Origin: a bacterium
GTDB taxonomy: Bacteria > Patescibacteriota > Patescibacteriia > JACQRZ01
Assembly: GCA_030688365.1 (NCBI GenBank)
Contig: JAUYIE010000005.1
Coordinates: 5,764-69,763 of the forward strand
DNA: 64,000 bases
Reading direction: 5' to 3'
In this document: piece by piece, positions 4,234-53,477 of the stretch
Position numbering within the stretch: position 1 is the first letter of the stretch
Layout of the letters: each line of letters opens with the position of its first letter
The notes under the pieces: model-generated
The model's input: the letters and a program-made list of their open reading frames with translations, nothing else
Told to the model about the DNA's origin: nothing
The model's database searches: none
Made by a program: the position numbers and the translations under genes

Positions 4234-6591
4234 ATGCATTGTATGCCCAAAAAAACAAGCATAGCGACAGCCAAAATATCAATTCCAGGGACTCAAAGCG
4301 ATGAGCTCTGTTATCTTTTCTCTCAGCAATTGGATGAACGAGACCCTCATTCTGATACAGTGTTTGGAATTTTTCAAATCCGAGCATCAAGTGAGGCCTA
4401 TCATAGCATAATTGAACACATCGTCAAACACCTCTTAGACTTCTATTATCGTGCTCAAGAAAATAAAGCAACCATGCATAATGAGCAGGCAGTTGGCGCT
4501 TCTGAATTTCTCTTTGAAAATGCCTTGCAATATGTGAATGATCAGGTCGTCAATATGATTGATGAACTACACAATTTTCCACAAGGACATGTGGCGATTG
4601 ACCGAACGCGTATTTCCTTATTGATTGGCGTGATATCAGGCGATGAACTATTTTTAACGAGTGCGGGAAATCTTGTGAAAGCGTATATGCTGTATCCTGT
4701 CAGTCGTAATGGTGTTTTTTCACATTATTCGGCCGTGACAATTTCAGATGATGAAAATCAAGAGCGTTACATTGATGCAAAAAAATTATTTACAAATGTC
4801 ATAGCGGGGACATTTGCCATTCCAGGCAGTACGCTTGTGGTAGCCAATGCACGATTCAATGACTACATACCTGTTGATCAGATCAAGCAAATTGTAACGA
4901 GTTATCCGTTTGATCATATCACGAAATATCTTTATAATTTACTCGGAAAAGCAAACGAAAATGCCGATTTTAATGCATTGTTTTTATCGCTACAGAAATC
5001 CGAGGCAACTGACACTTGGGGTGGTCGTCATCAGACACGATCTGATGATTCCATTAATGGTCTTGTAGAACAACAACGAAATACACAACATATTCTTTCA
5101 CCTGTAATAGCAATGCATATAAAAAAACAGGTGTCTCATTTTGTTGATCAGTATATTATCAAAACAGCCAAAGTTCTTCTTCAGCGCGTTAAGGAAGTTG
5201 ATTACAGAAAACATGCAAAGACAGCGCGAACATGGGGAAAACATGTGTCTATTCACGCCAGAAAAAGTGTCGGCCACTTGAAAAAAAATTACAAAAATCC
5301 ACTGCCCGTTATCAAACATGCAGCATCAGCAGTTTCGTCATCGCAATTTAAGACTTCAGCAATTGTCTTTCTTAAAAAATGGTCAAAGAAGATTTCTCAT
5401 AATTGCATTGAATTTTATTCATCTTTGAAAAAAAATGGCCCACGATACATCATTAGCTGGTTTAAGGGCTTAACGATGCTTTCCAAAAGTCTGTTGGTAT
5501 TGGCGATTATCTTTATTTTTTTATTTACAACGAGCATTATAACCTTACAAAGAAAGCGGGTAAATGAATCAACGCAACATGCGTATTCTCAACAAGTGGT
5601 GAGTATAGAAGAAAAAATTAATCAAGCAGAATCTAGTATGATATTTTCAGATGAGGAACATGCTATTCAGCTGTTGGCCCAAGCGCAGGATGACCTTACA
5701 GGATTGTCCAGGACATCTCCTGATAAGATCAAAACTGCAGATGAATTACAAACTCGTATCACGCGTGCTACGCAAAAGATTAATAAGATATATTCAGTAG
5801 AATCTACGATGGTAGCTAATTTTGATGGTCAAATACCCACACTAGACAACATTTCTATGCTTTCCACTGAAAACAAAACTATTGTCTACAATACTGAAAG
5901 TATTTATCTTTTGTCTTCAAACGACGGCTCTGTTCGTAAAATCAACACACAAGCAAAAATACCTAGCATTGGGTGTGGTGCATTTTTATCTGATGATCTA
6001 GTGTATTTTTGTGGTAAAGAAGGTGATCGTCTCTACGAGTTAAATCTAAAAAATAATGAAACGAAACAAGTAGCTATTTCACTGGCTAAAAACGAATCAT
6101 TACGACACATTACCTTTTATAGTGATCGGCTCTATGTCCTTGATGATACATCTGAGATAATATACCGCCACAGTAAAACAAATAATGGTTTTGGAGATCC
6201 TACAATCTGGTATCGGGGTGCCAACGCCACATCTCTGGCTGATGCGCGACAGATTTTGATTGATGGTGTTGCATATGTATATGAAGTTCCCGCAACACTC
6301 CTTCATATTTCAGGTGGAAAAGTTGTACCATTAGCGCTGACTGGAATTGAGCCGCCCCTTACCTCTATAGACAAATTTTGGATATCTGAAAGATCTACGT
6401 CCTTATATGTGCTTGATAAGACAAATCAACGAATCGTCATTTTTGATAAAAAAACTTTAAAAATAATTGGCCAGCTCACTAGTGATATTTTTTCAGAAGC
6501 AGAGTCCTTCAGTGTATTAGAAACTAAAATGAAAATTTTTGTTTTGACTTCGCATGGTGTTTATAGTATTCCTTTGGATTATCTGAAATAG
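4234..6591 (+). CDS. Large hypothetical membrane protein (cytoplasmic N-domain, central TM, repeat-containing extracytoplasmic C-domain)
   Basis: 785 aa ORF; TM segment LLVLAIIFIFLFTTSIITL; C-terminal YVLD-type repeats suggest a beta-propeller; start uncertain. Confidence 0.45.
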   Translation: MHCMPKKTSIATAKISIPGTQSDELCYLFSQQLDERDPHSDTVFGIFQIRASSEAYHSIIEHIVKHLLDFYYRAQENKATMHNEQAVGASEFLFENALQYVNDQVVNMIDELHNFPQGHVAIDRTRISLLIGVISGDELFLTSAGNLVKAYMLYPVSRNGVFSHYSAVTISDDENQERYIDAKKLFTNVIAGTFAIPGSTLVVANARFNDYIPVDQIKQIVTSYPFDHITKYLYNLLGKANENADFNALFLSLQKSEATDTWGGRHQTRSDDSINGLVEQQRNTQHILSPVIAMHIKKQVSHFVDQYIIKTAKVLLQRVKEVDYRKHAKTARTWGKHVSIHARKSVGHLKKNYKNPLPVIKHAASAVSSSQFKTSAIVFLKKWSKKISHNCIEFYSSLKKNGPRYIISWFKGLTMLSKSLLVLAIIFIFLFTTSIITLQRKRVNESTQHAYSQQVVSIEEKINQAESSMIFSDEEHAIQLLAQAQDDLTGLSRTSPDKIKTADELQTRITRATQKINKIYSVESTMVANFDGQIPTLDNISMLSTENKTIVYNTESIYLLSSNDGSVRKINTQAKIPSIGCGAFLSDDLVYFCGKEGDRLYELNLKNNETKQVAISLAKNESLRHITFYSDRLYVLDDTSEIIYRHSKTNNGFGDPTIWYRGANATSLADARQILIDGVAYVYEVPATLLHISGGKVVPLALTGIEPPLTSIDKFWISERSTSLYVLDKTNQRIVIFDKKTLKIIGQLTSDIFSEAESFSVLETKMKIFVLTSHGVYSIPLDYLK

Positions 6592-6681
6592 TGTTATACA
6601 CAGGGTGTACCAAAAAATTGAAAAATTTGTGATATACTATATACATAAATATAGCTCATTTAATTTTTAAAAAACCATGCA

Positions 6682-7014
6682 ATGCCAATTTTGAAAAGAA
6701 AAAAAATGCGATTGCCCATCACGTCACTGTTCAATGCAGTGTTAATAATGTTTATAATCATTAGGGCTACACTATCAGTAATGGTGCAACCGATAAACAG
6801 TACAACCAATTCTTATCTAAGTATCTTGCTTGCTGGGTATCCCACAACTGGTTTTGTCGCAATGTTAATCATTGCACTGGCTATTATTATGTGGAGTGCG
6901 CACCTTCTTCAAATATTTTGGAATAGATTTTTTGCAGATATGTTTTCACTTCGTGATCTAGAATATCAAGAAGCACTGGCAATCATTTTAATGATCGCCG
7001 TGATCATTCCATAA
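6682..7014 (+). CDS. Small integral membrane protein, hypothetical
   Basis: 110 aa with three predicted TM helices. Confidence 0.35.
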   Translation: MPILKRKKMRLPITSLFNAVLIMFIIIRATLSVMVQPINSTTNSYLSILLAGYPTTGFVAMLIIALAIIMWSAHLLQIFWNRFFADMFSLRDLEYQEALAIILMIAVIIP

Positions 7015-7027
7015 GAGTATAATAAAA

Positions 7028-7062
7028 AAGCCCCATCCAATAACGGAATGTGGGCTTTTTTA
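7028..7062. terminator. Bidirectional intrinsic terminator between convergent genes
   Basis: aaaaaaGCCCC...GGGCtttttt hairpin flanked by an A-run and a T-run, between 6682..7014(+) and rplL(-). Confidence 0.45.
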
Positions 7063-7074
7063 TTATCTGTGTAC

Positions 7075-7518
7075 TTATTGTAATGTAACTTTTGCGCCTG
7101 CCTCTTCCAATTTTTTCTTCATTTCTTCAGCTTCTGCTTTAGCAACACCTTCCTTTACTACTTTTGGTGCTGCATCAACGAGATCTTTTGCTTCCTTCAA
7201 TCCTAGTGCAGTAATTTCACGGACAACTTTGATAACTGCAATCTTTGTAGCACCTGAATCCGTGATCTCAATGTCAAACGCTGTTTTTTCTTCAGCGGCT
7301 GCGTCTCCTGCACCACCATTTCCTGGCATTGCTGCCATTGCCATCATTGGTGCTGATGCTGATACCCCAAACTTTTCTTCTAACACTTTTACCAATTCTG
7401 CCAAGTCAAGAACTGAAAGTTTTTCAATACTTGAAACAATATCCTTAAACTTCGCAGGTACCTCCACACCTTTTTTTTCTTCATTGATTGTTTCGTCTGC
7501 CATATAATTATTGTTCAT
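7075..7518 (-). CDS. rplL: 50S ribosomal protein L7/L12
   Basis: [14 protein letters not shown], Ala/Gly-rich hinge, C-terminal [37 protein letters not shown]; alternative start at 7503 (MADETINEE). Confidence 0.9.
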
Positions 7519-7526
7519 TAAAAATC

Positions 7527-8069
7527 TTACACGTTGGTCTTTTCACTCATTGCATGAAGCACAGTGACCAGACCTCTTAGATTACCCGCTAGTACATTGA
7601 CTATGCCAGAAACTGGCGCATTGAGTGAGCCCACAAGCTTAGCAAGTAGCTCTTCTCGTGAAGGAAGCGTTGCGAGCTGATTCAATGATAAAGTATCAAG
7701 CAAACGATTACCTGGTGCTTCTGACATCATCAAACCCGCTTTCATGCTAAATCCCTCATGATCTTTTGCAAATCGCGTAAAAAGCTTTGCAGGTGCTATT
7801 TCATCCTCCATACTAAACGTCGCCGCAATCTCTCCTTCAATCGTACGCGGAGTGACTTCAGTGATCCCTGCATCTTCCAGCGCCTTTGCCAAAAGTGTTT
7901 TTTTGGCGACCAGACAACGAATACCTGCTTGGTCACATTGTGTACGCAGATCATTAGCAGATTTCACGGTCAGTCCTTGCATATCCACAAAGACAATTGA
8001 CTTGCTTTGAGGAATATAGTCATTGATACGAGCGAGTATGGCTTTCTTTTTCTCTCTGGTTGTTGCCAT
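7527..8069 (-). CDS. rplJ: 50S ribosomal protein L10
   Basis: [35 protein letters not shown]... L10 family; start set at ATG 8069; the ORF-track N-terminal extension is the leader. Confidence 0.88.
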
Positions 8070-8183
8070 ACGACTGTATATAATTAAAAAAACTGTGGTA
8101 CGACCACAGAAAGCTCTCCCACTCGGGAGAAAGAGTATATACCCTACTATCGGCATTATTAAGTCCTGCTTCGGGCAAGACAC
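8070..8183 (-). promoter_or_regulatory. Structured 5' leader of rplJ-rplL (candidate L10 autoregulatory leader)
   Basis: Hairpins CTGTGGTACGACCACAG and CTCTCCCACTCGGGAGAAAGAG immediately upstream of the rplJ start. Confidence 0.4.
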
Positions 8184-8251
8184 CTATAGTCTTTGGATCG
8201 TGAAATCAATATACAGCGATTTTAAAATAATGTCAAATCGTTCCAATATAA

Positions 8252-8280
8252 TATAAAAGCCCCTAAATATTCGGGGCGAT
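8252..8280 (-). terminator. Intrinsic terminator downstream of 8309..8851
   Basis: Minus strand CGCCCCGAATATTTAGGGGC followed by TTTTATATT. Confidence 0.4.
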
Positions 8281-8308
8281 CAATTGATATATTTTTGCGT
8301 ATTTACAC

Positions 8309-8851
8309 TTACTTAATATTTTGGAACTGTTCCCTTAATGACAGTTGATACACCAAAATTTGGCCCATATACGTACTGGACAACCAGGCATGGAGCTCTG
8401 GAGAAATATATTTCATATCCAAAATATCATCATCATGAGCCAGAACTGTAATATGCGTCTCTTCTGATAATGTTTTGATATTCTGTGTCAAACACACCAA
8501 CATATCTGCAAGCCAAGATATCACACGTGATGAGTCTTCATCGGGATAGGTTTGCCTATCATCGCGAAATATCCATTCATTTAAATACGCTTTTTTTATT
8601 TTCAAAGCATTAAGAAATAATGGCAAGACCGATAAAATACCTCGTTCATTGACTGATAGTTTATTATTGGTCATAGGATCTATATTTAGCATAAGGAGTT
8701 TCATATAGTTATATTCTTCAGCCGATGAAATATTTAACATCAAACAAATAAAAGATAATTTTCGGTATCGTAATGCTTTCTTGGTTGCTTTTCTGTCTTG
8801 TATTTTTTTTGATATGAAATCCCCTAGCACATCAAATATATTTATGTTCAT
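8309..8851 (-). CDS. Hypothetical protein
   Basis: 180 aa ORF, no recognisable motif. Confidence 0.35.
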   Translation of the reverse strand: MNINIFDVLGDFISKKIQDRKATKKALRYRKLSFICLMLNISSAEEYNYMKLLMLNIDPMTNNKLSVNERGILSVLPLFLNALKIKKAYLNEWIFRDDRQTYPDEDSSRVISWLADMLVCLTQNIKTLSEETHITVLAHDDDILDMKYISPELHAWLSSTYMGQILVYQLSLREQFQNIK

Positions 8852-8962
8852 TTTTTTCTCCTTTTTTTCTAAATGATAGATCTGTTGGTTGTAAAATAAC
8901 CTACTGTACTTTTACAGTACTCTCGCTGTTTTGTCAATGGATGAGTATTAAATGGTTGAGCA

Positions 8963-9997
8963 TTATGGGGCGATGGATGGCAAATACTTCCTCTTATTTG
9001 CCAAGTGTTCTTCGTATGTTTTGCTATAAATTGCGTTTCCTTGTCTATCAGTCAAAAAATAAAGATACGGTGTTTTTGTATAGTAAATAACCGACTTGAT
9101 GGATGCAAGACCGGGATTATCAATAGGACCTGGTGGTAAACCTGTATGTTTGTAGGTGTTATATGGTGAATCTGATGCAACATCATCAAATGTTGGTTGT
9201 GCCATACTTTTTCCCGTTACGTAATTCACCGTTGCATCGGAGCCCAAAGTCATACCCAGCGCCATGCGTTTATAAAAAATACCCGCTACAATAGCACGAT
9301 CTTCATCTGTAGCTACTTCTTTCTCCACAATCGATGCCAAAGTAATTACATCAAAAATTGTCCGTTTTTGTGCGACAATATCATCACGCATCTGCTGAGT
9401 AAACTTGATATCAAAATTTTCGAGCATGGCGTTTATAATATCATCAGCAGTGGCATCTGGATAAACCCGATACGTATCGGGAAAAAGATATCCCTCCAAC
9501 GTGGCGGTCCTTGGTAGATCAACAAGAAATGGATATTCGTCTTTGGGTACTTGCTGTGTAGCTTGTAAAAAGGTTGCCCCAGCCGGATGCCCTTGTTCTT
9601 TTAAATACTCACCAAACCCTGCACCGGTAAGCCCTTCACGAAATGTCAATGTCACTTCCGGTACGTATTGTGGTTTTGTCATAGTATGTACCACCGATGA
9701 AAGTGTAACCTTACCTGCGAACGAATATGTGCCTGCCTGCAAATGTCCATCGTTACCGGTAATAAAAAGATAAACACCAGCTAAAAACGGATTACTGATG
9801 ATATGATTATCATGAAGAAAAGCCAAGGTTTCAGAACCACGCTGCCCTGGGGGTACGACAACTTCTACTTCATGTTGGATGGAATGTGGTATAAACCAAA
9901 CATACAGCGCATAAACCCCATACAATACTATGATCAAACTTCCGATAGTTAAAAATCGTCTTGCAAAAAAACGAAAAATGGTCATGAAAACAGTCAC
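8963..9997 (-). CDS. mltG: Endolytic murein transglycosylase MltG (YceG family)
   Basis: N-terminal TM; YceG motifs SPYNTYKHTGLPPGPIDNPG and EKEVATDEDRAIVAGIFYKRMALGMTLGSDATV. Confidence 0.85.
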   Translation of the reverse strand: MTVFMTIFRFFARRFLTIGSLIIVLYGVYALYVWFIPHSIQHEVEVVVPPGQRGSETLAFLHDNHIISNPFLAGVYLFITGNDGHLQAGTYSFAGKVTLSSVVHTMTKPQYVPEVTLTFREGLTGAGFGEYLKEQGHPAGATFLQATQQVPKDEYPFLVDLPRTATLEGYLFPDTYRVYPDATADDIINAMLENFDIKFTQQMRDDIVAQKRTIFDVITLASIVEKEVATDEDRAIVAGIFYKRMALGMTLGSDATVNYVTGKSMAQPTFDDVASDSPYNTYKHTGLPPGPIDNPGLASIKSVIYYTKTPYLYFLTDRQGNAIYSKTYEEHLANKRKYLPSIAP

Positions 9998-16277: not shown

Positions 16278-18212
16278 TCAAAGGTTCACGGAAAAAAATC
16301 TATCAACGCGGAGGTCAGATTGTAACTGGACGCTCTTTATATCTATTTTTGTATTGAAAAAACCTGTAGGTGAATATTCCTTAATAGGTTGTTGAAATGT
16401 TAGTTTCGCTTTGAATTGTTGATTGGTGACCCCTGCTTGTTTTTGTGCCAACAAAGTATAATGGCCAGATCGTACCATATCTTCAATGTGTGATGGCAAT
16501 TTGTACTCCACGCTGAAATGCTTTGTGGTACGCGGTTCAACCACAATGTAGGCGCCAAAATACGTCTTGTCAAGTTCTTGACCTACCACGACAGTACCCA
16601 CCTCATCAGATAATTCCTTTTCCATCGCACCCTGTGAGCTGATAAACGTACTACCATTGGGTACATAAATACGTACCCAATCACGGTACCGTGTTGTAAA
16701 CCATGTAAATGAACCATTATTGGTATAATATAAATCAACCCTTCCTCGCAGTGTACCGTCTTTTTGTTCTATCACTGTGTAATCAATATGTTTGTCCATC
16801 ACCGTATCTGTCTTGAGTGAAATCATGTTACTATCAGCTACCATGACAAAATCACCGTCTGTCTCTTTAAATTCACCGGTCCAATTTTGACTACGTGCAA
16901 AATTTTGCAACACAGGATCGTTTAGATACACCATGACTTGTCGTTCCTGCACTAATCTTTGCATTGTAGCAATAACCTCTGATAAACGTTCGGTGGGCAA
17001 CTTGTACAACCTTTGTAAAATTCTATCAGATAGAGTGCCAATAATTTCTTTTCGATTTGATTCTGTCACCCCTCTTTGGTAATACCCTTTTTCAACTTGA
17101 TATTGAAGTTCTGTCTCAAAATTTTCAGCGGTAAATACTATACCTTCCACATCAATAGGACCGACAAAGCGCAATAAGGGAACGATAAAATCCTGTGATA
17201 CTGCAATCACTCCGTCTAGATGTTCTTTACCACCTTCTTGCTCATAAAACCACATCGCTTTTTTAGCAGATTCACTAAAATCCGGTGACCAATTTGAATC
17301 GCGTAAAAACCATTGATTTGTCTTAAAATATTTTGCGATTGGCAATGGAGGTGCCACTTTCAGAGATAGAGCTGCATCATCAAGATTGTAGATATTGTCA
17401 GTTACAAACTCCTTTATTTCGCCGTTGTGCAATTTCAATATTCCATAATTACCAATAAATCCTCCACTTCCGCGCACTTCAGCATTGTTTTGCATCAAAA
17501 AAAGATACGTTTGTTTTTTTGGATACCCTAATAATGCAGGTCCCATATCAAAAAATGGTGAAAATATTTCAAATGCACTATTCAAGACATCAATCCCGTC
17601 AGTCGCTCTTTTAATAGAATCATCAAAAAAAGGATGCAAAATTCCCATATCCATATTGTGCAGTGCACTCTGTTGGAGTAATAAGTCAGCATGTACTGCA
17701 CGTAAATGATCACTTTCTTTTTCAACAAGACTCAATATCAATCCTTTTTGCTCTTCAGACACATCGCGTAACGAATATATGGTATCTCCACCCCCTAAAA
17801 TATCAAAAAAATCATTAGCAATTTCAACCCCTTGTTGTGCATCTATTATTAAGGACTGGCCTATATGGATGAAATTTAGAGTCGATTTATACGGTGTGTC
17901 AACGTAGGGAATGTGTGATAACAAAGTCAAATGACCAAATATTTCATTAAGTTCCTGTGTTGAATTATTCAGAACGTGCAATGCAGATGTTATACCATCC
18001 AAATCTCTGCTTTCTATTAGTACATGTATTGTGGATAATGAGTGTTTGATCTCCAAAGCAGTATGATAGGCGCGATACGCATAAAAACTGACATACAACA
18101 AAATGCTTATGATAAACACCACAAGCAGACTGGTTATCATTTTAAATAGTCGCCATGCAATTGCTCGACGTCTATAGTACCTATGTGAAAAATGTTTAGG
18201 CAAAAGATTCAT
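16278..18212 (-). CDS. DUF4012-like membrane-anchored extracytoplasmic protein
   Basis: N-terminal TM then 600 aa domain; this family is typically adjacent to envelope glycosyltransferases; assignment from memory. Confidence 0.4.
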   Translation of the reverse strand: MNLLPKHFSHRYYRRRAIAWRLFKMITSLLVVFIISILLYVSFYAYRAYHTALEIKHSLSTIHVLIESRDLDGITSALHVLNNSTQELNEIFGHLTLLSHIPYVDTPYKSTLNFIHIGQSLIIDAQQGVEIANDFFDILGGGDTIYSLRDVSEEQKGLILSLVEKESDHLRAVHADLLLQQSALHNMDMGILHPFFDDSIKRATDGIDVLNSAFEIFSPFFDMGPALLGYPKKQTYLFLMQNNAEVRGSGGFIGNYGILKLHNGEIKEFVTDNIYNLDDAALSLKVAPPLPIAKYFKTNQWFLRDSNWSPDFSESAKKAMWFYEQEGGKEHLDGVIAVSQDFIVPLLRFVGPIDVEGIVFTAENFETELQYQVEKGYYQRGVTESNRKEIIGTLSDRILQRLYKLPTERLSEVIATMQRLVQERQVMVYLNDPVLQNFARSQNWTGEFKETDGDFVMVADSNMISLKTDTVMDKHIDYTVIEQKDGTLRGRVDLYYTNNGSFTWFTTRYRDWVRIYVPNGSTFISSQGAMEKELSDEVGTVVVGQELDKTYFGAYIVVEPRTTKHFSVEYKLPSHIEDMVRSGHYTLLAQKQAGVTNQQFKAKLTFQQPIKEYSPTGFFNTKIDIKSVQLQSDLRVDRFFSVNL

Positions 18213-29560: not shown

Positions 29561-29977
29561 TTAATATTCCTGATAATCTTTTGTTGCAAAACGCTTGTTT
29601 ACGCGTTGTGCAACGGCAGACAGAACATCCTTGTCACCTTGAGAGAGTTTGTTATATCTCTCTCCCCATTTTTCTTTTACAGCATCTTCAACTCTATATT
29701 GCCGATATCCTGGTCCATGTCGGATTAGGTACCCATATTCACACAGTTCGTCTATATGATGCCCAAGCTGTGAGTTATACAAATCAGAATCATATTGCCA
29801 CTGATGAATAAATGTGGGTATGTTTGTTATCGGATTTCTCTTCAAATCGACAAAGATTATCTGCCATATTTTGTCATGTGGCATCAAATCCACATTATTT
29901 ACACTACACTGCCCCATATGGTTATCGCGTAGTAGCAACACCATATCAAAAAAATCCTGTAACATTGATATTCCCAT
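29561..29977 (-). CDS. Hypothetical protein (possible mobile-element cargo)
   Basis: Start set at ATG 29977 (MGISMLQ) preceded by strong RBS AAAGGAGGT; no family assignment. Confidence 0.4.
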   Translation of the reverse strand: MGISMLQDFFDMVLLLRDNHMGQCSVNNVDLMPHDKIWQIIFVDLKRNPITNIPTFIHQWQYDSDLYNSQLGHHIDELCEYGYLIRHGPGYRQYRVEDAVKEKWGERYNKLSQGDKDVLSAVAQRVNKRFATKDYQEY

Positions 29978-30196
29978 ATCAACCTCCTTTTTATTCCCCA
30001 TTGAATAAAATGAACAATATCGACAACCCGAATATAGCACAATAGGTTATTTTTGCAAGCTAGGACGGTAGTGGACTTAAATTTTTGGCACCAAGTCACA
30101 AAACCAAAATCCCTTTGTAACAACGTTTAGAGGTAGTCTGCAATCACTGCCTGATTTTACCTCAAGTGGTTTATATACATGTTCACCAACTAAAAA

Positions 30197-30411
30197 ATGG
30201 ATTTTGTTTTTGAATTCAGGGAAAAAATGGGGTTGGGTTCAGGCGGGCTCCAAAACCCTCAAGCCCCCAAAGGGGGCGAAAGAGGAGACATATACACAAA
30301 CCTGTCTCTCCTGAACGAAATCCGAACTTTTTTTCAAAAAAATCCAGACGCGGAATTTTAAACTGGTGACATGGCGGAATTCCCCCCACACCCCCCTTCC
30401 GCCATGTTTTT
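30197..30411 (+). repeat. Structured ~215 bp repeat, copy A (direct); ends in terminator-like hairpin plus T5
   Basis: Near-identical to reverse complement of 32466..32680 and to 34161..34264; hairpins GCCCCC-AAA-GGGGGC, GGAGACA..TGTCTCC, CATGGCGGAA..TTCCGCCATG+TTTTT. Confidence 0.8.
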
Positions 30412-30451
30412 GTGTAGGACATTTTTTTGGCTCGCAAGAGGGTAATCAAGT

Positions 30452-31282
30452 CTATCTCTCTAATTTTTTATTATTCTCTTTCTCAAGTTTTTTCTTTTCT
30501 TTTTTCAATTCTTTGATATGCCGTTCGGGAGGTAAATTTTCAGGTAAAATGCCACCAATATCCTTGATCGTCTGTCGTACTTTTCCGCCAACCATATTGT
30601 GAGTATTGATGGCATCCCTCTCCGAATCAACCTCATCTTTTTTAAGCTTTGAATCGGTTTGGGTAATACGAAAAAGATTTGCCGCCAATTCGGTCGAACC
30701 CGATCTGTCTAGTAGTTCTCCCTTCTTAATCCCCTTTCTTATTTCAACATCACCAAGAGGCATACCATACAGACCACTATACCCTGCATCATTGAATACC
30801 CCAAAGTGGGTCACGCCTGCCTGTCGAGCTGTTTTTGCCAGCTTTTTGTTCTGATTACTGACCTCGTCACGAATAAATAATCGTTTTTCGTTTAGACTCA
30901 TCTCCTCAAATAATTCTTGCTTTCTTGTCTGTAGAGCAAAGTATGTCTGCGCAAGTGCAATTTCCGTTTTTGACGGATCGCCATTTTGAGCTATCAAATA
31001 ACACGCATAGCGATCAAGCTTGTAATCATCCACTTTTCTCATGGTATTTGAACCGATCGAGACCATTTTGCTGATATCAGCAAAATGGTTATCCACAGCC
31101 TGTCCGCTCTGAATACAAGCCCGTGCCGCTTTTGCGATAACTTCTGCAAAATTTCTCCATTGAGCATAATCAAGCAAGCTCATCAATTCGCGAGCTGTCC
31201 AATACTCAATCCCATTCTCGTCAATTTTTTTAATGCTCTCAAAATCCTTGTGTGGACTTGAGGGCAGTAGCTCATGTGGCAT
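30452..31282 (-). CDS. dinD: DNA damage-inducible protein D (DinD)-like protein
   Basis: WTARELMSLLDYAQWRNF, RYACYLIAQNGDPSKTEIALAQTYFALQTRKQEL, GSTELAANLFRITQT closely parallel E. coli DinD (recalled from memory); start at ATG 31282 or upstream 31369. Confidence 0.65.
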   Translation of the reverse strand: MPHELLPSSPHKDFESIKKIDENGIEYWTARELMSLLDYAQWRNFAEVIAKAARACIQSGQAVDNHFADISKMVSIGSNTMRKVDDYKLDRYACYLIAQNGDPSKTEIALAQTYFALQTRKQELFEEMSLNEKRLFIRDEVSNQNKKLAKTARQAGVTHFGVFNDAGYSGLYGMPLGDVEIRKGIKKGELLDRSGSTELAANLFRITQTDSKLKKDEVDSERDAINTHNMVGGKVRQTIKDIGGILPENLPPERHIKELKKEKKKLEKENNKKLER

Positions 31283-31392
31283 ATTTAGTATTTGACTATG
31301 AACTATTATTACATCCGATGGTACCATGTTTAGATAACAAAGGATGTTCCCGTACTGGCAAACAATCAATATTGCGTTCCCATTTGAGTAAT

Positions 31393-32280
31393 CTACTTTT
31401 CAACACTACCGAGTCTATATCCTATTGTTCGTCCCTTCTTACCTTCAGAAAAAAGTACTGTGGGGCCTCCAGCAAAGAACTCAAGTGGCGCAAGTTTTGA
31501 AATCGCTTTGAACAAATCTAAGCTAGTGGAATAAACCAATTTCTCAATTTCAGGATTATACCCATCATAATATACTGCCACCTTTTTGGGACCTTCCAGA
31601 TTTTCACTATCAGGATATTCTTCATTAACTTTATATTTCTCATACCTATCATCCAGTTTTTTAAATACCATACTACGCCTAGCGTAAGAAAAGGAAATTA
31701 TATTCTTTTCTTTATGTAAAGCAATATAGATAGGCAAAAGCATTTGATCATTCTCAATTATCAATGTTGTCTGTCTATCCCCATCACACATCTCCTTAAT
31801 AATGTCATCAGAATTAATGAGATTGTCATTGGGAATTAATTTCAATTTTTCGATTGAGGGTATTTCTATATCTCCTAATTTCTGGTTTATATCCCGCATG
31901 GCTATTCTAATATCTTTATAGGCAACGAGACCAGTTTTTTCTCCACAGTGTTCTTTGAAAACCTCAATTATTTTAGAAGCTTCTATGTCTTTCACGTTTA
32001 TTGCGACATCGAAATTACTAAATGATAGAAACTTCTCCAATTGACTTTCGTGAGACTCATTCTCACGACCCCATAATGTAGCATAAATTTCTGCCATTTT
32101 ATCGGTATCCAAGTCGTCACCATTTAAATATAAATATCTTCCATTGTCTTCAATCACATAATCTCTAACCTTTTCAAGTCTATCTACATACTCCTGCGAA
32201 ACCTCGCCTTCAATTTTCAAACCGTGCTTGTCTGTATCTAATGCATTTACATTATTAGGTTGTTCAAATTTTGGATCCAT
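31393..32280 (-). CDS. Hypothetical protein co-transcribed with dinD-like gene
   Basis: 295 aa ORF, 24 nt upstream of dinD-like; no recognisable motif. Confidence 0.4.
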   Translation of the reverse strand: MDPKFEQPNNVNALDTDKHGLKIEGEVSQEYVDRLEKVRDYVIEDNGRYLYLNGDDLDTDKMAEIYATLWGRENESHESQLEKFLSFSNFDVAINVKDIEASKIIEVFKEHCGEKTGLVAYKDIRIAMRDINQKLGDIEIPSIEKLKLIPNDNLINSDDIIKEMCDGDRQTTLIIENDQMLLPIYIALHKEKNIISFSYARRSMVFKKLDDRYEKYKVNEEYPDSENLEGPKKVAVYYDGYNPEIEKLVYSTSLDLFKAISKLAPLEFFAGGPTVLFSEGKKGRTIGYRLGSVEK

Positions 32281-32465
32281 AAAATTTAATATTAATAATG
32301 TTCAGATATTACTATAAAACCTAAACGACTCATGGCCATCATAAAATAATCTTTACTCACACTATGACATAAACTTGTGTTTAATACAACAGTCCTAATT
32401 TGGATTAGCGCAGTCATTTCTTTCTTGCAAACTCTCCTTAAAAAGCATATCGTTAGTAATATAAA

Positions 32466-32700
32466 ACCATGGCGGAAGGGGGGCGTGGGGGGAATTCCGC
32501 CATGTCACCCATTTTAGAATTCCGCGTCTGGATTTTCTTGAAAAAAAGTTCGGATTTCGTTCAGGAGAGACAGGTGTGTGTATATGTCTCCTCTTTCGCC
32601 CCCTTTGGGGGCTTGAGGGTTTTGGAGCCCGCCTGAACCCAACCCCATTTTTTCCCTGAATTCAAAAACAAAATCCCATGGTTTGTTGAAATCCACTTTC
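32466..32700 (-). repeat. Structured repeat, copy B (inverted relative to A)
   Basis: Reverse complement ~97% identical to copy A over ~215 bp including the terminal hairpin; lies ~190 nt upstream (same orientation) of 31393..32280. Confidence 0.8.
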
Positions 32701-32758
32701 CACCTATGGCGGAAACATCCAAAGCGACATACAACATAATTCATAGCCTCCAAGCGAT

Positions 32759-34324
32759 ATGAATACGTTCTTTCTCTACGCTCGCAAGTCAACAGATGAG
32801 CCAGATCGTCAGATATTGAGTATTGAAGCCCAGATCACCGAGCTTCGCGAATTTGCCCAACGAGAACATCTTGATATTGTGGATACATTTATCGAATCCC
32901 AAACAGCAAAAGAACCGGGGCGTCCCATATTCAACAAAATGCTTGATCTCGTAGAGAAAGGTGGTGCAAATGGAATTTTGGCGTGGCATCCCGATAGACT
33001 CGCTCGCAACAGCGTTGATGGGGGGCGCGTAATTTATCTCACCGACACGAGAAATCTCACTGACCTCAAATTCCCTACCTTTTGATTTGATGCCACGCCA
33101 CAGGGCAAATTCATGCTCAATATCGCTTTTGGACAGAGTAAGTACTATGTGGATAATCTCTCGGAGAATGTGAAACGAGGATTACGGCAAAAAGTACGGC
33201 GTGGTGAACAAGTTGGGCGAGCACCGATGGGATATCTCAATGATCTTGTCGCCAAGAAAATGATACCCGACCCCCTACGCTTTCACCTTATTCACAAAAT
33301 GTTTGAACTGTATGTGACTGGTAATTATTCTTTGAAATCCCTCCGAGAGATTATCTTTGAGAAAGGACTGATGAGTGGAACAGACAAAAAGCTCTCTATT
33401 TCGATGATACAAAAAATACTCACCAATCCGATGTATTATGGTGCCTTTCTTTTTAACGGAGAGCTTTTTGCTGGCACTCATGAGCCATGCGTGTCAAAAA
33501 AACTGTTTGATGGAGTGCAAAGTATTCTGACAAGCAAAACAAACCCCAAGAAGCGAGGCGAGAAGCAGTATCCCCTACGAGGATTGTTTGTATGCGGTGA
33601 ATGTGGGTGCAGTATCACGTCAGAAACGCATAAAGGACATGACTACTATCGATGCACCAAGAAAAGGGATGCAAAATGCTCACAGAAATATATTCGAGAA
33701 GAGCTTCTCGCCCAGCAACTATCAACAATAATTCAAAACGTTTCTTTGCCAAAAGATTGGACGGACAATATACTTGAGCAACTACAAACGGAGAAATCGG
33801 ATACCGCCCAATCTGATGCCCTATTCGCTCAAACAATTAAGGATGAGGTAAAAGTATATGAAAACAAGCTTGATACCTTGCTGGACGCACACCTTGAGCA
33901 ACTCATCACGAGAGAAGAATATACCACCAAGAAAAACAAAGTATTGTCTCAAAAGATGGACTTAGAGCAAAAACTAAAGGATTTTGAGCGAAAGGGCAAC
34001 GCATGGCTCGAACGTACTCGTGCGTTCATAAATGCTTGTATCCAAGCGGAAAATGTCGCTTTGGATGAAAATATTTTTGCAAAAAAAGATTTTCTGAAAA
34101 AACACGGCTCGAACCACCTCCTCACTGACAAAACGGCTTGGGTGGATTTTCTCGCACCATGGGATTTTGTTTTTGAATTCAGGGAAAAAATGGGGTTGGG
34201 TTCAGTTGGGATTCAAAACCTTCACGCCCCCAAAGGGGGCGAAAGAGGGGGCATATACACACACCTGCGGGACATGGACTCGAACCATGATACCATCCTC
34301 CAGAGGGATGTGTCCTACCATTAG
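32759..34324 (+). pseudogene. Large serine recombinase interrupted by an in-frame TGA at 33083-33085; C-terminal ~60 codons run through repeat C and tRNA-Gln antisense and are probably not native
   Basis: Resolvase catalytic domain YARKSTDE...SIEAQ...ESQTAKEPGRP; same frame continues after TGA: FDATPQGKFMLNIAFGQSKYYVDNLSENVKRGLRQK, recombinase domain, Cys zinc ribbon CGECGC...YYRC, coiled coil; functional part ends near 34140. Confidence 0.75.
34141..34264 (+). repeat. Structured repeat, copy C (partial, direct), abutting the 3' end of tRNA-Gln
   Basis: Shares ~110 bp core with copies A and B but lacks the terminal hairpin; fused directly to tRNA-Gln. Confidence 0.75.
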
Positions 34325-34335
34325 ACGATCCCGCA
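34265..34335 (-). tRNA. tRNA-Gln (anticodon CTG), U1-A72
   Basis: Minus strand TGCGGGA-TC-GTCT-AATGGTA-GGAC-A-CATCC-CTCTGGA-GGATG-GTAT-CATGG-TTCGAGT-CCATG-TCCCGCA-G. Confidence 0.85.
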
Positions 34336-34358
34336 GGTCTATGTACATGTTATGACTT

Positions 34359-35441
34359 CTACTCTCGTATACATCCTTTCACAATCGCGACTTCAATAGG
34401 CAGTTGTGGCAAAGAAAACCACCGCGCATCCTTTTGTGCCGCCATCCAATGACTGACAAGCGCGAGGATATCTCTCATGCTAAGCAATGTCGCGAGTTCT
34501 GTGAGACTTTTTTCCGTCGTTTCATCCGTATCCACAAGATTGGTCACATTATTTTTATATAACATGATATTGCGCAAGTACTCTATCATATCCCCCACAA
34601 ACACATCAAGATCAACACCATTGTCAATCAACTCCTGTACGATAGCCAATGCTTGTTCATTGCGCTTATGACTTATCGCATCAGCAAGTCGACGCACAGC
34701 GACGTGATCTGTGCGTGGCAACAGCGCAGAGGCAAAATCGTACGTGATCGTATCCCCCAGTGAAAATATCTGTCCCAGCAAACTTTCTGCATCCCGCTGG
34801 CAACCTTGCGAAAGTCGCACAATCTCATTGATCACCTCTTTTTCAACACTCTTTTTTTCTTTTTTTGCAATAAGCATCAAGCGGGCAAACATCTGCTTGG
34901 CAGGAATCTTTTTAAAATCAAACCGTTCGCATCGGGAAATAATAGTAGGCGGTACCTTATGCAACTCTGTCGTAGCAAGGATAAAAACAACATGAGACGG
35001 TGGTTCTTCAATAAGTTTGAGTAGGGCATTAAAGGCAGAGATGGAAAGCATGTGCACTTCATCAATGATAAACACCTTATTCGTAAGTTGCGTGTGAGCT
35101 ACTTTTGCCGTTGCAATGATGTTATCTCGAACATTATCAACGCCAGTGTTGGATGCGGCATCAATCTCAATAATATCTAAACTTCGATGCTCCAAAATAG
35201 AAAGACATGGTTCACACTCATTGCACGGCTCTGGGACGCCTGTTTTACGTTTGATGCAGTTGATAGCGCGCGCAAACACTCTCGCAGTCGTGGTCTTTCC
35301 CACTGCGCGGGGCCCAGCAAACATGTACGCATGTGCAATACTTCCTCTACTGATTTCGTTTTCCAATGTCATCTTGATGGGCTCTTGCCCTATGATATCG
35401 GCAAACAACTGCGGACGATATTTTCTATAGAGAGCGCTCAT
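34359..35441 (-). CDS. dnaX: DNA polymerase III subunit gamma/tau (short form)
   Basis: FAGPRAVGKTTTARVFA Walker A, zinc module CNECEPC, DEVHML, SRC; 360 aa. Confidence 0.85.
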   Translation of the reverse strand: MSALYRKYRPQLFADIIGQEPIKMTLENEISRGSIAHAYMFAGPRAVGKTTTARVFARAINCIKRKTGVPEPCNECEPCLSILEHRSLDIIEIDAASNTGVDNVRDNIIATAKVAHTQLTNKVFIIDEVHMLSISAFNALLKLIEEPPSHVVFILATTELHKVPPTIISRCERFDFKKIPAKQMFARLMLIAKKEKKSVEKEVINEIVRLSQGCQRDAESLLGQIFSLGDTITYDFASALLPRTDHVAVRRLADAISHKRNEQALAIVQELIDNGVDLDVFVGDMIEYLRNIMLYKNNVTNLVDTDETTEKSLTELATLLSMRDILALVSHWMAAQKDARWFSLPQLPIEVAIVKGCIRE

Positions 35442-35443
35442 GG

Positions 35444-36322
35444 CTAAAACTTTTTAATAATATTTTCTACCGCAGCCCATTGTGTTGACTTATCCCGAGG
35501 GATCAGGATCACTACTTCATCACCGGGTACGCCTTTGAAATACGTAACGCTGGCAGTCAGCACGCGCCATACCTGTCCTTCGCCTTTTACCACAAACGTA
35601 TGTGTTTCCTCATCTGTTTCCAGTATGCCTATCACTCTGCGACGTGCAATCGGCCCTATTTGTTTATAAATAAACGATCCATTGTGACTAATGGTCAATT
35701 TTAGTATATCACCTTCTACGAGTTTTGATTTGGAGGCATAGTTGGGTGGTATAGAATACTGTTTACCATCCGGCCCGACCATCCCCTGCCCGTCAAACAT
35801 TCCTTCAAGGATATTTCCCTCATCGCCGTTGTTATCAATATGTGCCGGTGCAGTTCCAGGATGAAAAATATGCCGTGTCGTATCAATCGCCATACCAGGT
35901 ACGAGTTGTGAGAGTTGTGAAAATCGTGCAGCATCGTGAGTACCCATAGGTGTACCATCGCTTGCCAACTCTTCACTCAACAAATCAATCGCTTTTTGTG
36001 CGTTCTTTTTTATATCTTCAAGTGTGTGTTTTAAAAGTTCCAAACGCGGGTGTGCAGAGGGTTGTGTTATAGAGGCGGGAGCGACAGGAGTGGACGGATG
36101 AGCTACGGGATCTACAGCATCTGTTGGTTGTATTGTCACTTCCGTGTCGCTTAGCATCTCTTTTTCTATATCAGAAAGCGCATCATCAAGACTTTTTTCG
36201 CTTGGATGTTCAGATGAGACGACACTGGGAGTGGTAGTTGGTAAGGGGGTAGTTGGGGGATCATTAGGTGTTATGTTACCCAGATTTTGCTGTTTCGGAA
36301 AAAACCAGAATGGATCTGACAT
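35444..36322 (-). CDS. Pro/Thr-rich hypothetical protein with C-terminal beta domain
   Basis: Low-complexity PTTPLPTTTP linker; C-terminal FVVKGEGQVWRVLTASVTYFKGVPGDEVVI. Confidence 0.3.
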   Translation of the reverse strand: MSDPFWFFPKQQNLGNITPNDPPTTPLPTTTPSVVSSEHPSEKSLDDALSDIEKEMLSDTEVTIQPTDAVDPVAHPSTPVAPASITQPSAHPRLELLKHTLEDIKKNAQKAIDLLSEELASDGTPMGTHDAARFSQLSQLVPGMAIDTTRHIFHPGTAPAHIDNNGDEGNILEGMFDGQGMVGPDGKQYSIPPNYASKSKLVEGDILKLTISHNGSFIYKQIGPIARRRVIGILETDEETHTFVVKGEGQVWRVLTASVTYFKGVPGDEVVILIPRDKSTQWAAVENIIKKF

Positions 36323-36408
36323 ATCTTTTTTCTTTATATTTTAGTCTGTTTTTGTTTATTGTTTTGATCCTAGCATTTTTTACAATGTATTTCAAGCCCT
36401 CTTTTGGT

Positions 36409-38979
36409 CTACTCCTCTTCTCCGCTCTGATCGTCCTCATCTTCATCTTCGTCGTCTGGAGTCTCATGTTTGGCGCGCCGTAAGATTTCACGCTCCACCA
36501 ATTCACGATCTCTCCCATATTTGAGTTGAGATAGCTGACCGATCGCATTTGCGATTTCGTCGTCACCGGCAGTTGGCGCAAACGTACGCATATTAAACGG
36601 GCGCGCAGCCGTTCCATTAATCAGTAAACGCACATACGCGTGTGTACGCTCTATATTTATTACATCAAACTCATTAAACACAGGTGCCATTTGTTTTGCA
36701 ATCAATTCGGCATCATCCACACCCACGCGAAAGTTGACAATCGTTCCTACGTTTCCAAATACTGCATCACGAACTTTGGTATCGCCAGTCTTTGGTGTAA
36801 GTTGTGCAATATATTGATGCCCGATAGTCAAACACAGACGGTATTTACGCGCCTCTGACAAAATAATCGCAATGCTGTCAGTGATAAAATTTTGAAACTC
36901 GTCAATATACAAGAAAAAATCTTGACGTTGCTCCGGATCCGCGATATCACCACGCGACAATGCGGCCATGGTTATTTTACCTACCATAATCAATCCTAAA
37001 AGATACGCGTTAAGATCGCCCAACTGCCCTTTGCTCAATTTCACTAACAAAATCTTTTTTTGATCCATGACCTCGCGCACATTAAATGCGCTTGTCTGTT
37101 GTCCAATGATCGGACGCATGATGTCATTGGATACAAATTGATTCAATTTTGAAGTAATATAGGGCACCATATTGGCAAGAGCCGCTTCACCGCCTGCTTT
37201 TTGCGCTTCCTTTACCCAAAAATCACTCACGACGGAATTTTTACATTTTGACAACTTATATGATCTAAACTCTTCATCAGCCAACACTTTTGAAACTTCC
37301 ATAAGTGTAGACCCTGACTCGGGATCCTCCATGATTAAAAGTAACGCATTACGCAAATATTGTTCAAACATCGGCCCGCCAGTGGCTCGCAAATCATACA
37401 GTTTATCCAAAATCATCACAAACTCATTGATAACGAACGTTTTTTGTTCGGGATATTTCGGATCAAACTCCAAAAGATTCAGCCCCTTAGGACGCTGGTA
37501 ATCAGCAGGATCAAACAAAATCACATCATCAGCTCGCTCCGGTGGTACCAGAGAAAGAATATGATCAACCGCTTCACCATGAGGATCAATAAAGCAACAA
37601 CCTTCTCCATTTTTGATATCCTGAATAATCATGTTTTCCATCAATGTTGTTTTTCCCGAGCCAGTCATACCGATGACATACGTGTGTCTACGACGATCAT
37701 CGCGAAGCATGTGTACTGGCGTTGCCGTACCTCTATATACATTTTCTCCCAACAATACCCCTTCCTGTGGCATATTGACGGGAGGTGGAGCACTGCGTGA
37801 TTTGAGCCAATCAATATTGGGTGTCTCGGTTGTACTTAATGGCAAATGAAAAATACTCGCCAATTCCTCGGCATTTAAAATAAAACAATGACGCGCGTCA
37901 AAATGGCGATAAATTGAATGTTCCACCATTGCTGATTTTGGTATCCTCTTATTTTTAACCAATGCGATATTTGATTCCGGGCCAGTATATTGCGCAAATG
38001 AATTGACTACATTGTATACTTGCATATCTGCCAATTCTTGTGTTTGTGCAGATCCGATAATACGTATATTCACTTGAAAGCCCGCCTTTGATCCTTTTTC
38101 CTCAACTACTTTGACTAATTCTTGTTCTAGAGGAGACATACGATATTCAGGAGAGGGATGTGCCGTGTTTTTACCTGTTGATCTTAATATGTCTACCGTG
38201 GTACCCCCTGCAGTATTTAAAGCACCCCATGCAATATCGCCTATTGAACCGACATGTGCCGCCTGCATCGCCTCTTTAACACTTTTTCCTTTCTGCATTT
38301 CGCGAGCAAATGCTTGTCCTTTTGTGCGCCATCCTCGTGGAGCAGTACGGATAGTCATTTGCAATATGATACCTTGTCCTTGTCCCGCCTTACTCAATGC
38401 GTTGGTCAATGCATTGAGTGGGTCAGAATCCATTTTGCGATACGTCCGTAATGGAAAAACCCAATGCCTGTTCAGCTGCAATGTAGCCGCTGCGACACTG
38501 CCATGCGGTAAAAAAATATTATAATCCGGCGTTTCTTCAATCTGCGCCGAAGGATATTGGGCGAGCAACTGTTGTTCAAAAAAACTTTGCAAATAATCGG
38601 GAACAATAGCAAAAAATTTAATAAGTCCGTCAATGGCGACAATTTCAAATGTAATTTCATCTTCCCGACCCAAAAAAAATGCTTTAAATATATCGCGCGA
38701 TCGCATTCCACCAAGACCTAAATACAGAGATTCAGCAACGGCTACCACTTCTTGATATTCTCCCTTTCCTCCTTTATCTTCTTCTTCTCCCTTTGACCCC
38801 TCCTTAGAAACGCGCAATTGAAAGACTTTTTTATGCAATGCATTGTGCGCAATATGCTGACGAACAAGAATCGCGCGGATTATCATCACAACCAAAACTA
38901 TTACAAGACATATCAGGATTGTCCACCAGAAAGTGGCAAAGAGGATATTGGTGGCAATAAGGTTGCTGATGACGTCCAT
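36409..38979 (-). CDS. Membrane-anchored VirD4/TraD-like AAA ATPase (type IV coupling-protein-like, DUF87/TrwB-type)
   Basis: N-terminal TM helices; Walker A GMTGSGKTT; Walker B LYIDEFQNF; acidic C-terminal tail. Confidence 0.5.
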   Translation of the reverse strand: MDVISNLIATNILFATFWWTILICLVIVLVVMIIRAILVRQHIAHNALHKKVFQLRVSKEGSKGEEEDKGGKGEYQEVVAVAESLYLGLGGMRSRDIFKAFFLGREDEITFEIVAIDGLIKFFAIVPDYLQSFFEQQLLAQYPSAQIEETPDYNIFLPHGSVAAATLQLNRHWVFPLRTYRKMDSDPLNALTNALSKAGQGQGIILQMTIRTAPRGWRTKGQAFAREMQKGKSVKEAMQAAHVGSIGDIAWGALNTAGGTTVDILRSTGKNTAHPSPEYRMSPLEQELVKVVEEKGSKAGFQVNIRIIGSAQTQELADMQVYNVVNSFAQYTGPESNIALVKNKRIPKSAMVEHSIYRHFDARHCFILNAEELASIFHLPLSTTETPNIDWLKSRSAPPPVNMPQEGVLLGENVYRGTATPVHMLRDDRRRHTYVIGMTGSGKTTLMENMIIQDIKNGEGCCFIDPHGEAVDHILSLVPPERADDVILFDPADYQRPKGLNLLEFDPKYPEQKTFVINEFVMILDKLYDLRATGGPMFEQYLRNALLLIMEDPESGSTLMEVSKVLADEEFRSYKLSKCKNSVVSDFWVKEAQKAGGEAALANMVPYITSKLNQFVSNDIMRPIIGQQTSAFNVREVMDQKKILLVKLSKGQLGDLNAYLLGLIMVGKITMAALSRGDIADPEQRQDFFLYIDEFQNFITDSIAIILSEARKYRLCLTIGHQYIAQLTPKTGDTKVRDAVFGNVGTIVNFRVGVDDAELIAKQMAPVFNEFDVINIERTHAYVRLLINGTAARPFNMRTFAPTAGDDEIANAIGQLSQLKYGRDRELVEREILRRAKHETPDDEDEDEDDQSGEEE

Positions 38980-38982
38980 AGT

Positions 38983-39468
38983 TTATTCTTTTGTGTTGAG
39001 AAATAATATCTTCTCGGCTTTAATTTTTGCTTCCTGTTCCAAAAAATACTGATTCACTCGCGGAATAAGCAACAACCATCGTCGGATCAATGATACGAGG
39101 TAATCAATTTTTACCTTCACGTGAGCTAAAAGATATTCAATACGTGAAGCAGTCAGCTCACCCTGTTGGCGAAAGGTCAACTGACGATCTGGTTCAAGCT
39201 CTAAATACAAAGAACGAAGATCTTCTTCAAGTATCTTCTCTATGTTATGTCGGAGGGGAGATTTTGTTGTGGCTACCAACGCTGTTTGTTGTGAAGCAAC
39301 CGGCACGATCGCCGTAGGAGGCGACTCTTGATTTACTGACTGTTTTTCTTGTTGCGGTATCTCTCGTTCATCTGCCTTTTCTTGTTTTGGTATCATCAAT
39401 TCAGGCGTTGGCATTATCTCCGGTATTTGAAATGTCTTTTCACCCACGGGGCGAGCGGAATCAGGCAT
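38983..39468 (-). CDS. Hypothetical protein
   Basis: 161 aa ORF immediately downstream of the ATPase. Confidence 0.3.
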   Translation of the reverse strand: MPDSARPVGEKTFQIPEIMPTPELMIPKQEKADEREIPQQEKQSVNQESPPTAIVPVASQQTALVATTKSPLRHNIEKILEEDLRSLYLELEPDRQLTFRQQGELTASRIEYLLAHVKVKIDYLVSLIRRWLLLIPRVNQYFLEQEAKIKAEKILFLNTKE

Positions 39469-52887: not shown

Positions 52888-52996
52888 ATATCACCACTGT
52901 ACTCCTCGTAAGCAATTTTGTATAGAACTGTGTTTATTCATCTTCCTGTGGGCAATTGCGGAGAACCAAAGAGATACTAGGTGGGGAGATAATTGG

Positions 52997-53104
52997 TTTG
53001 AGCCGACTCCGCAAGGGAAATTCATGTTTCAAGTGGCGTTTGGGCAGAGTAAATATTTTTCAGATAGTCTTGTTGAAAATGTAAAACGGAGCTCGGTCTT
53101 GTAA
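52997..53104 (+). pseudogene. Relic of a second large serine recombinase (internal fragment)
   Basis: Translates FEPTPQGKFMFQVAFGQSKYFSDSLVENVKRSSVL*, clearly homologous to FDATPQGKFMLNIAFGQSKYYVDNLSENVKRGL of 32759..34324; no intact ORF around it. Confidence 0.5.
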
Positions 53105-53402: not shown

Positions 53403-53477
53403 TGGTAGTCCCACGGGGAATCGAACCCCGATTTGGTCCGTGAGAGGGACCCGTCCTAACCGTTAGACGATGGGACC
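53403..53477 (-). tRNA. tRNA-Glu (anticodon CTC), CCA encoded
   Basis: Minus strand GGTCCCA-TC-GTCT-AACGGTTA-GGAC-G-GGTCC-CTCTCAC-GGACC-AAAT-CGGGG-TTCGATT-CCCCG-TGGGACT-A-CCA; G1-U72 wobble. Confidence 0.8.

Follow-up and report, generated by a model that had tools for sequence, protein, structure and literature searches.

A probable recent nonsense mutation in the serine integrase gene of a small tRNA-associated element from a standard-code patescibacterium

A 64,000-nt stretch of patescibacterial DNA, referred to here as the window, contains a large serine recombinase (LSR) gene whose reading frame is interrupted by one in-frame TGA. We consider it highly probable that this codon arose by a recent TGG-to-TGA nonsense mutation in the integrase gene of a small tRNA-associated element, in a host that uses the standard code, and that it does not mark recoded DNA. 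In the explanation that we propose, one G>A transition would have turned the invariant Trp109 codon, TGG, into TGA within the putative integrase gene of a ~4-kb integrative element (about 30305-34267) situated at the 3' end of a tRNA-Gln gene in a Patescibacteria (CPR) genome. Translation would end after residue 108, ahead of helix E and of every DNA-binding domain, so that no active recombinase would be made, and any product initiated at the downstream ATG (33113) would be without the catalytic domain; the element would thereby be immobilised, capable of neither self-excision nor movement. Since the remainder of the gene is undecayed, the mutation would be recent.

An in-frame TGA at an invariant tryptophan codon

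The LSR frame occupies 521 codons at 32759-34324 on the forward strand, and in a single-frame translation its sole internal stop is codon 109, the TGA at 33083-33085 (+), which stands in the context …CCT ACC TTT TGA TTT GAT GCC… and separates …LKFPTF from FDATPQGKFMLNIAFGQSK…. Listings of open reading frames therefore cut the gene into two, 32759..33085 (108 aa) and 33113..34324 (403 aa). When the stop is masked as X, the Pfam Resolvase match (PF00239; residues 5-150, E 3.7e-22) bridges codon 109, and Recombinase (PF07508; 177-258, E 7.6e-13) and then Zn_ribbon_recom (PF13408; 272-319, E 9.9e-12) follow downstream in the same frame; because homology is present on both sides of the TGA, the continuity of the frame is real and not a product of chance, just as the initial annotation had maintained. 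Codons 1-108 (32759..33082, +) encode the catalytic Ser domain up to a point just before helix E and match the N-terminus of the closest relative, P0001, with 96% identity, and codons 110-521 with the TAG stop (33086..34324, +) encode the recombinase domain, the zinc ribbon, a coiled-coil region and a variable tail, with 86% amino acid identity to P0001 over 412 aa. Alignment with homologues shows that the YARKST motif, including Ser11, is kept. The catalytic serine and the Recombinase and zinc-ribbon domains of an LSR are thus present, and the uninterrupted ORF is lost at codon 109: the window gene is a large serine recombinase by descent and a pseudogene by state. Its domains follow the order found in known LSRs, such as the Listeria A118-type LI integrase, phiC31 and Bxb1, from which the window copy differs by its nonsense codon, and solved LSR catalytic domains show weak similarity to it (3G13, E 6e-8). 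NCBI nr has an entry for the 108-aa product (P0121; one member, from one contig of 112,884 nt), and exact look-ups of the 108-aa fragment, the 403-aa fragment and P0121 found no record.

A protein search returned thousands of full-length LSR relatives, the few with source names being Parcubacteria, Paceibacterota and other Patescibacteria. Tryptophan occupies the codon-109 column in 21 of the 21 aligned homologues (57-88% identity), where the surrounding block, FPTFWFDATPQGKFML, is invariant. P0001, the closest relative (88% amino acid identity), comes from a related MAG (GCA_023246095.1), and its locus, L001, is syntenic with the window, with tRNA-Gln and dnaX adjoining, the same genes to the right and 86.6% nucleotide identity; the L001 codon is TGG, and that of the window differs from it by G>A alone. 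A TGR-tolerant DNA pattern, which required the exact peptide KFPTFWFDATPQGKFM and was blind to TAG at codon 109 and to stops at Gln115, found TGG at 192 of 192 sites (70 loci in species-representative genomes, 1 viral and 121 metagenomic) and TGA at none. Metagenome contigs gave no match to a 51-nt pattern specific to the lineage, in which the variable base was set to R. Among the observations that would speak against recoding, the initial annotation had named a TGG tryptophan codon in homologues, together with TGA/TGG polymorphism among reads and the lack of other evidence of recoding; TGG is the codon that the relatives carry.

The lesion appears to be young. The stop is the only private departure of the window LSR from invariant or near-invariant columns, at which intact homologues show between zero and two departures. 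When the differences between the window and L001 were polarised with three outgroup genes, 29 synonymous and 23 nonsynonymous changes (the stop counted among the latter) fell on the window branch, against 38 and 20 for L001; the difference between the branches is not significant (Fisher p 0.33), and the window branch is far from the neutral expectation of ~74% nonsynonymous changes (p 5e-6). The substitutions on the window branch thus look as though they bear the signature of purifying selection, and selection acting over nearly all of that branch implies that the nonsense mutation is recent. Two alternatives had been offered at the outset, a recent nonsense mutation that left a pseudogene or an origin in a lineage or phage with UGA as a sense codon; the TGG codons of the relatives, the solitary private change and the mark of purifying selection uphold the former, and the latter fails on the evidence presented below.

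Disrupted recombinase genes across the family

Inactivation is common among the relatives. In-frame stops or frameshifts disrupt 14 of the 132 family loci that contain codons 1-465, and the clean single nonsense alleles among them include a TAG at codon 406 and a TAA at codon 144 (L174). A search with the 108-aa fragment recovered P0121 and 119 other short N-terminal LSR fragments, and the ends of these 120 fragments cluster before Trp109, Gln115, Gln126 and Gln144, each one transition from a stop, with several frameshift alleles in addition. Three fragments examined at the DNA level end at genuine stops beyond which the frame continues: TGA at the Trp109 codon in L195, TAG at the same codon in L196, and TAA at Gln115 in L197, where the remaining ~400 codons are intact. 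This is what the expected mutation of an often-inactivated mobile-element gene should look like.

Insertions and fusions occur in the same region. In L201, an IS110-family element (366-2774, with DEDD_Tnp_IS110 and Transposase_20 domains) lies directly after the Trp109 TGG and has TGG at both junctions; its left junction, with …TTTTGG on one side and CTATGCAAA… on the other, is found in L198, L199 and L200 as well and recurs in another LSR lineage, which suggests that the IS110 element has a sequence-specific target inside the conserved LSR block in several lineages. Mutation of codon 109 in three lineages, taken together with IS110-type insertions there, leaves room for a non-random process. 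Seven proteins (P0180, P0181, P0189, P0195, P0203, P0222 and P0239) have LSR residues 1 to ~123 fused to a tail resembling the translated P' attachment arm described below (…MLSIPFYQEVRNYF…, …MLNFSLYEEVRNYF…); judged from their sequences, these fusions look like the outcome of recombination, or of att-arm insertion, within the LSR gene.

The genetic code and other origins of the stop codon

Host and element follow the standard code. When the window is read with code 11, ORFs of 150 codons or more, measured from stop to stop, span 88% of it and 13 of the 71 terminate in TGA, as do 8 of the 54 likely genes, two of them in ATGA start/stop overlaps (2821-2824 and 18209-18212). The other Trp codons of the window LSR are TGG without exception (5/5; six Trp codons when codon 109 is counted), and codon 109 is the only in-frame TGA in the element: both cargo genes, where the initial annotation had proposed counting such codons, and the flanking genes have none and end in TAA or TAG. 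The suppressor tRNA that had been suggested as a further sign of recoding, with anticodon UCA, is absent from the four tRNAs that ARAGORN and Rfam detect in the window (Gly-ccc, Thr-cgt, Gln-ctg and Glu-ctc). With regard to a SECIS or a read-through RNA element, Rfam reports only tRNA in 29900-34500 at E<=1. The GC content of the element is not distinct from that of its flanks.

Stop-codon recoding is exemplified by Gracilibacteria and Absconditabacteria and by recoded phages, which use codes 4 and 25. The window resembles such genomes in having an in-frame TGA where relatives have a sense codon and departs from them in that the TGA is single, code 11 applies otherwise, a suppressor tRNA is missing from the window and the other tryptophans are encoded by TGG. 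Code 25, which had been put forward as one option, is excluded because the aligned residue is Trp and not Gly. For code 4, under which the element would derive from a lineage or phage with UGA as a Trp codon and the LSR would be intact in its native context, the identity of that residue is the one point of agreement, with nothing in support beyond the Trp column itself, and we find this origin scarcely credible: TGA is found at just one of the six LSR Trp codons and in neither cargo gene, the codon is TGG in 192 relatives and in the syntenic orthologue L001, the window holds no tRNA(UCA), the host terminates genes on TGA and the GC content is like that of the flanks. The TAG at codon 109 in L196, moreover, counts directly against any TGA-specific decoding. 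The suggestion that the element stems from a UGA-as-sense lineage or phage is thus not sustained.

Other explanations accept the host code and differ on what the TGA represents. The A at 33085 might stem from faulty base calling or consensus building, or the assembler might have fixed a minority allele, in a population whose gene has TGG. Such an artefact would sit well with an LSR that has no other defect, with the TGG of the closest relative and with the presence of the TGA allele in one deposited contig only (P0121), and contig L196, which appears to hold TAG and TGG versions together, indicates that mixed alleles occur in assemblies of this kind; we nevertheless regard it as unlikely, as the change is a substitution and not a homopolymer-length error, and real in-frame stops are found at codon 109 and nearby in independent assemblies of other lineages. 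In the only independent assembly found, Logan SRR13727534, one contig is 100% identical to window positions 34306-39441, and none covers codon 109: one contig (L193) ends inside the tRNA and another (L194) carries the cargo proteins between repeats A and B unchanged, both breaking at or near repeats. UGA is the leakiest stop in some bacteria, where near-cognate tRNA-Trp would insert Trp. A small amount of wild-type LSR may therefore be made by UGA misreading, and the TGA might then be a real but leaky stop that leaves an attenuated integrase. Because TGA replaces Trp, read-through by tRNA-Trp would, from what is known of UGA misreading, give the native sequence, and the remaining ORF is intact; this account is nonetheless quite improbable, since a TGA seen in 0 of 192 relatives is unconserved and so not programmed, a U follows the TGA, which makes for comparatively efficient termination, relatives with TAG or TAA alleles show plain inactivation, and Rfam finds no read-through element. 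More improbable again is an origin of the TGA as a by-product of the IS110-type element that targets the same TGG in relatives, for instance as a scar left when the element inserted and was then excised. The position of that element in L201, directly after the Trp109 TGG and between two TGG junctions, the identical left junction in L198-L200 and the second change that accompanies TGA in the next codon of L195 (TGATGT against TGGTTT) speak in its favour, but the window site has neither IS110 sequence nor extra bases, the window and L001 differ by one base in that stretch, and a transition at a TGG codon requires no special mechanism. A simple and recent nonsense mutation thus remains our preferred reading.

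Unusual decoding and a divided enzyme were also considered and rejected. A selenoprotein is contradicted by the Trp, rather than Cys or Sec, of the homologues and by the lack of a SECIS according to Rfam; with +1 slippage on U UUU UGA, homology is lost in the +1 frame and kept in frame 0; and a split but functional two-piece enzyme is at odds with a break that precedes helix E and with the breaks of relatives, which fall at various Trp and Gln codons or are frameshifts.

The element and the attachment sites of its family

Repeats in the window and comparison with L001 delimit the element. At its right end, repeat copy C (34142..34267, +; ~125 nt), defined by repeats and alignment and having the same junction in L001 and in the family, comprises the P arm and core within the last ~40 LSR codons and abuts the 3' end of the tRNA, an attR-like (P-O-B') arrangement. 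The LSR ORF crosses this copy and then runs antisense through the 3' half of the tRNA-Gln(CTG) gene (34264..34336, -; ARAGORN, and Rfam tRNA with 58.2 bits), its translation ending in …RDMDSNHDTILQRDVSYH; the overlap of tRNA and element amounts to ~4 nt (the discriminator and 3 nt of the acceptor stem). Copy B (32463..32696, -), identified from inverted repeats and alignment, is a complete inverted attP-like site (P-core-P' plus a GC-rich hairpin), with 63 nt between it and the LSR start downstream, and copy A (30187..30411, +; repeats and alignment) is a direct P-core-P' with hairpin in the attL position, with an atypical P arm. After the common core (…CACACCTG), copy C leads into the tRNA, whereas copies A and B lead into the P' arm (TCTCTCCTGAACGAAATCCGAAC…) and then the GC-rich hairpin; in the frame of the LSR tail, P' reads …SLLNEIRTFFQ(K/E)NPDAEF followed by a stop. 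In L001, the counterpart of copy B is conserved at 9757-9937, as is the tRNA-side copy, and a direct core and P' copy, bordered on its left by unrelated DNA, is found 5.5 kb further left and constitutes a normal attL. This attL bounds a 7.3-kb element in L001 and so, by analogy, gives the window element the limits of about 30305-34267 (about 4 kb). Unusually, copies B and C of the window are just 90% identical; identity is 95% between A and B and 90-92% between either of these and C. The P arm of copy A (30187-30304) stands where L001 and most loci have unrelated host DNA, and it may have arisen when an element integrated in tandem at an older attR, or by gene conversion involving A and B.

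The cargo looks defence-related. One gene (30452..31369, -; stop TAG) encodes a Bro-N domain protein (Pfam Bro-N, E 1.1e-8; phrog_8036, E 9e-95) of the PADLOC candidate defence family PDC-S13 (E 4e-108), and the other (31393..32280, -; stop TAG), recognised as an ORF, encodes a 295-aa protein with no family match in Pfam, phrog and PADLOC searches. The corresponding L001 element has SLFN_AlbA_2/HATPase_c_4 and Trypsin_2/TIG proteins (4396-9533) at the same tRNA-Gln site as the different cargo of the window. Elsewhere in the window, at 52964-53092 (+), there is a relic of another LSR, 43 aa long (…NWFEPTPQGKFMFQVAFGQSKYFSDSLVENVKRS, with TGG for its Trp) and ~300 nt away from the 3' end of a tRNA-Glu gene (53403-53477, -); gene and tRNA have the same relative orientation as at the window LSR, so the relic is what remains, after extensive deletion, of an older element of this kind.

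The arrangement recurs through the family. In 76 of the 130 related loci that reach its 3' end, the LSR ORF terminates within a tRNA gene of antisense orientation, the tRNAs being Gln (51), Gly (13), Ser (7), Lys (2), Arg (1), Trp (1) and Val (1). Of the 49 distinct full-length genes preceded by 800 nt or more of sequence, 40 have an inverted copy of the ORF tail upstream, with medians of 114 nt for its length, 98.4% for its identity and 88 nt for its distance from the start codon. The two copies part at one sharp junction, from which the right copy enters the tRNA and the left copy a conserved (S/C)LLNKIRTFF-type arm, whatever the tRNA target. The motif YCGRAC starts 13 nt from this junction in the tRNA arm and 18 nt from it in the P' arm in 33 of the 37 locus pairs that carry both. 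In the LI integrase system, the zinc-ribbon motifs of attB and attP are related by a 5-bp outward shift (PMC3783163), and the LSR family, in which the element-side motif stands 5 bp farther out than the target-side one in those 33/37 pairs, would appear to share that att geometry. Of 39 loci, 14 have a third, direct attL-type site, situated 2-5.6 kb to the left. In 8 of 114 loci, a sense tRNA precedes the LSR start by 170-470 nt, so that the LSR segment has the opposite orientation; the ORF tails of these loci lie outside the compared DNA. The contigs of L144 and L190 end in the repeat, short of the place where such a tRNA would be seen.

We read these sequences as pointing to a bona fide LSR integration system that would target the tRNA acceptor and T-arm and whose attP core would occupy the terminal part of the LSR ORF; the second, inverted attP might serve, for example, autoregulation, inversion or integration either way round. 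Tentatively, and on sequence comparison, the loci may represent a compact class of integrative elements of Patescibacteria that use the T-arm (TTCGAAC) as the zinc-ribbon motif, place the attP core in the ORF end, keep an inverted attP upstream and carry defence-type cargo. Because the T-arm is universal among tRNAs, an LSR of this class would appear able to land at the 3' ends of many tRNA species; because the attP core is at the end of the ORF, integration would exchange the last ~18 LSR codons for antisense tRNA sequence; and the inverted attP copy just upstream, usually 98-100% identical, would allow both of the orientations that occur beside tRNA genes. A literature search for tRNA-targeting LSR elements in Patescibacteria found no relevant description.

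In comparison with known LSRs, the family is set apart by its tRNA 3'-end target, by a core inside its own ORF and by the second inverted attP-like copy upstream. In SSV1-type archaeal viruses, attP lies inside int, and integration of SSV1 splits the tyrosine integrase gene in two. The window family shares with these an att site that overlaps the integrase ORF, so that integration alters the gene sequence, but its LSR would trade the last ~18 codons for antisense tRNA and leave the body of the protein whole. Islander-type islands (PMC4383910) likewise are small, lie beside a tRNA whose 3' end stays intact and have a tRNA-proximal integrase and variable cargo; they use tyrosine integrases, in contrast to the serine recombinase of the window element, which shares ~4 nt of the tRNA.

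Some features of the assemblies bear on how the repeats are represented. Many family members lie on contigs of 1.8-2.3 kb with little beyond the LSR gene, and L193 and L194 also break at repeats; such breaks would be consistent with inverted repeats having collapsed, or with populations that contain more than one orientation or copy. Where an LSR ORF on such a short contig has a P' tail, the assembler may have run through the inverted repeat, and the sequence may not correspond to a real molecule. In L095 (Ga0210018_1002833, 8610 nt), two inverted LSR copies at the contig ends, each with an upstream inverted tail copy, flank ~5 kb, which is either a composite arrangement or an assembly artefact.

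The TGA of the window LSR is thus real but ordinary, and the gene is a member of a frequently inactivated LSR family. It is to be regarded as a decaying integrase and not to be counted as recoded mobile DNA in a standard-code host. As a calibration case, it shows that a lone in-frame TGA at a Trp column is the product of a single transition and that a recoding call needs several independent lines in agreement. The family context may matter more than the TGA itself: if the proposed architecture is true, LSRs that read the T-arm, together with natural attP/attB pairs from hundreds of loci, would make up a ready set of serine integrases with defined sites.
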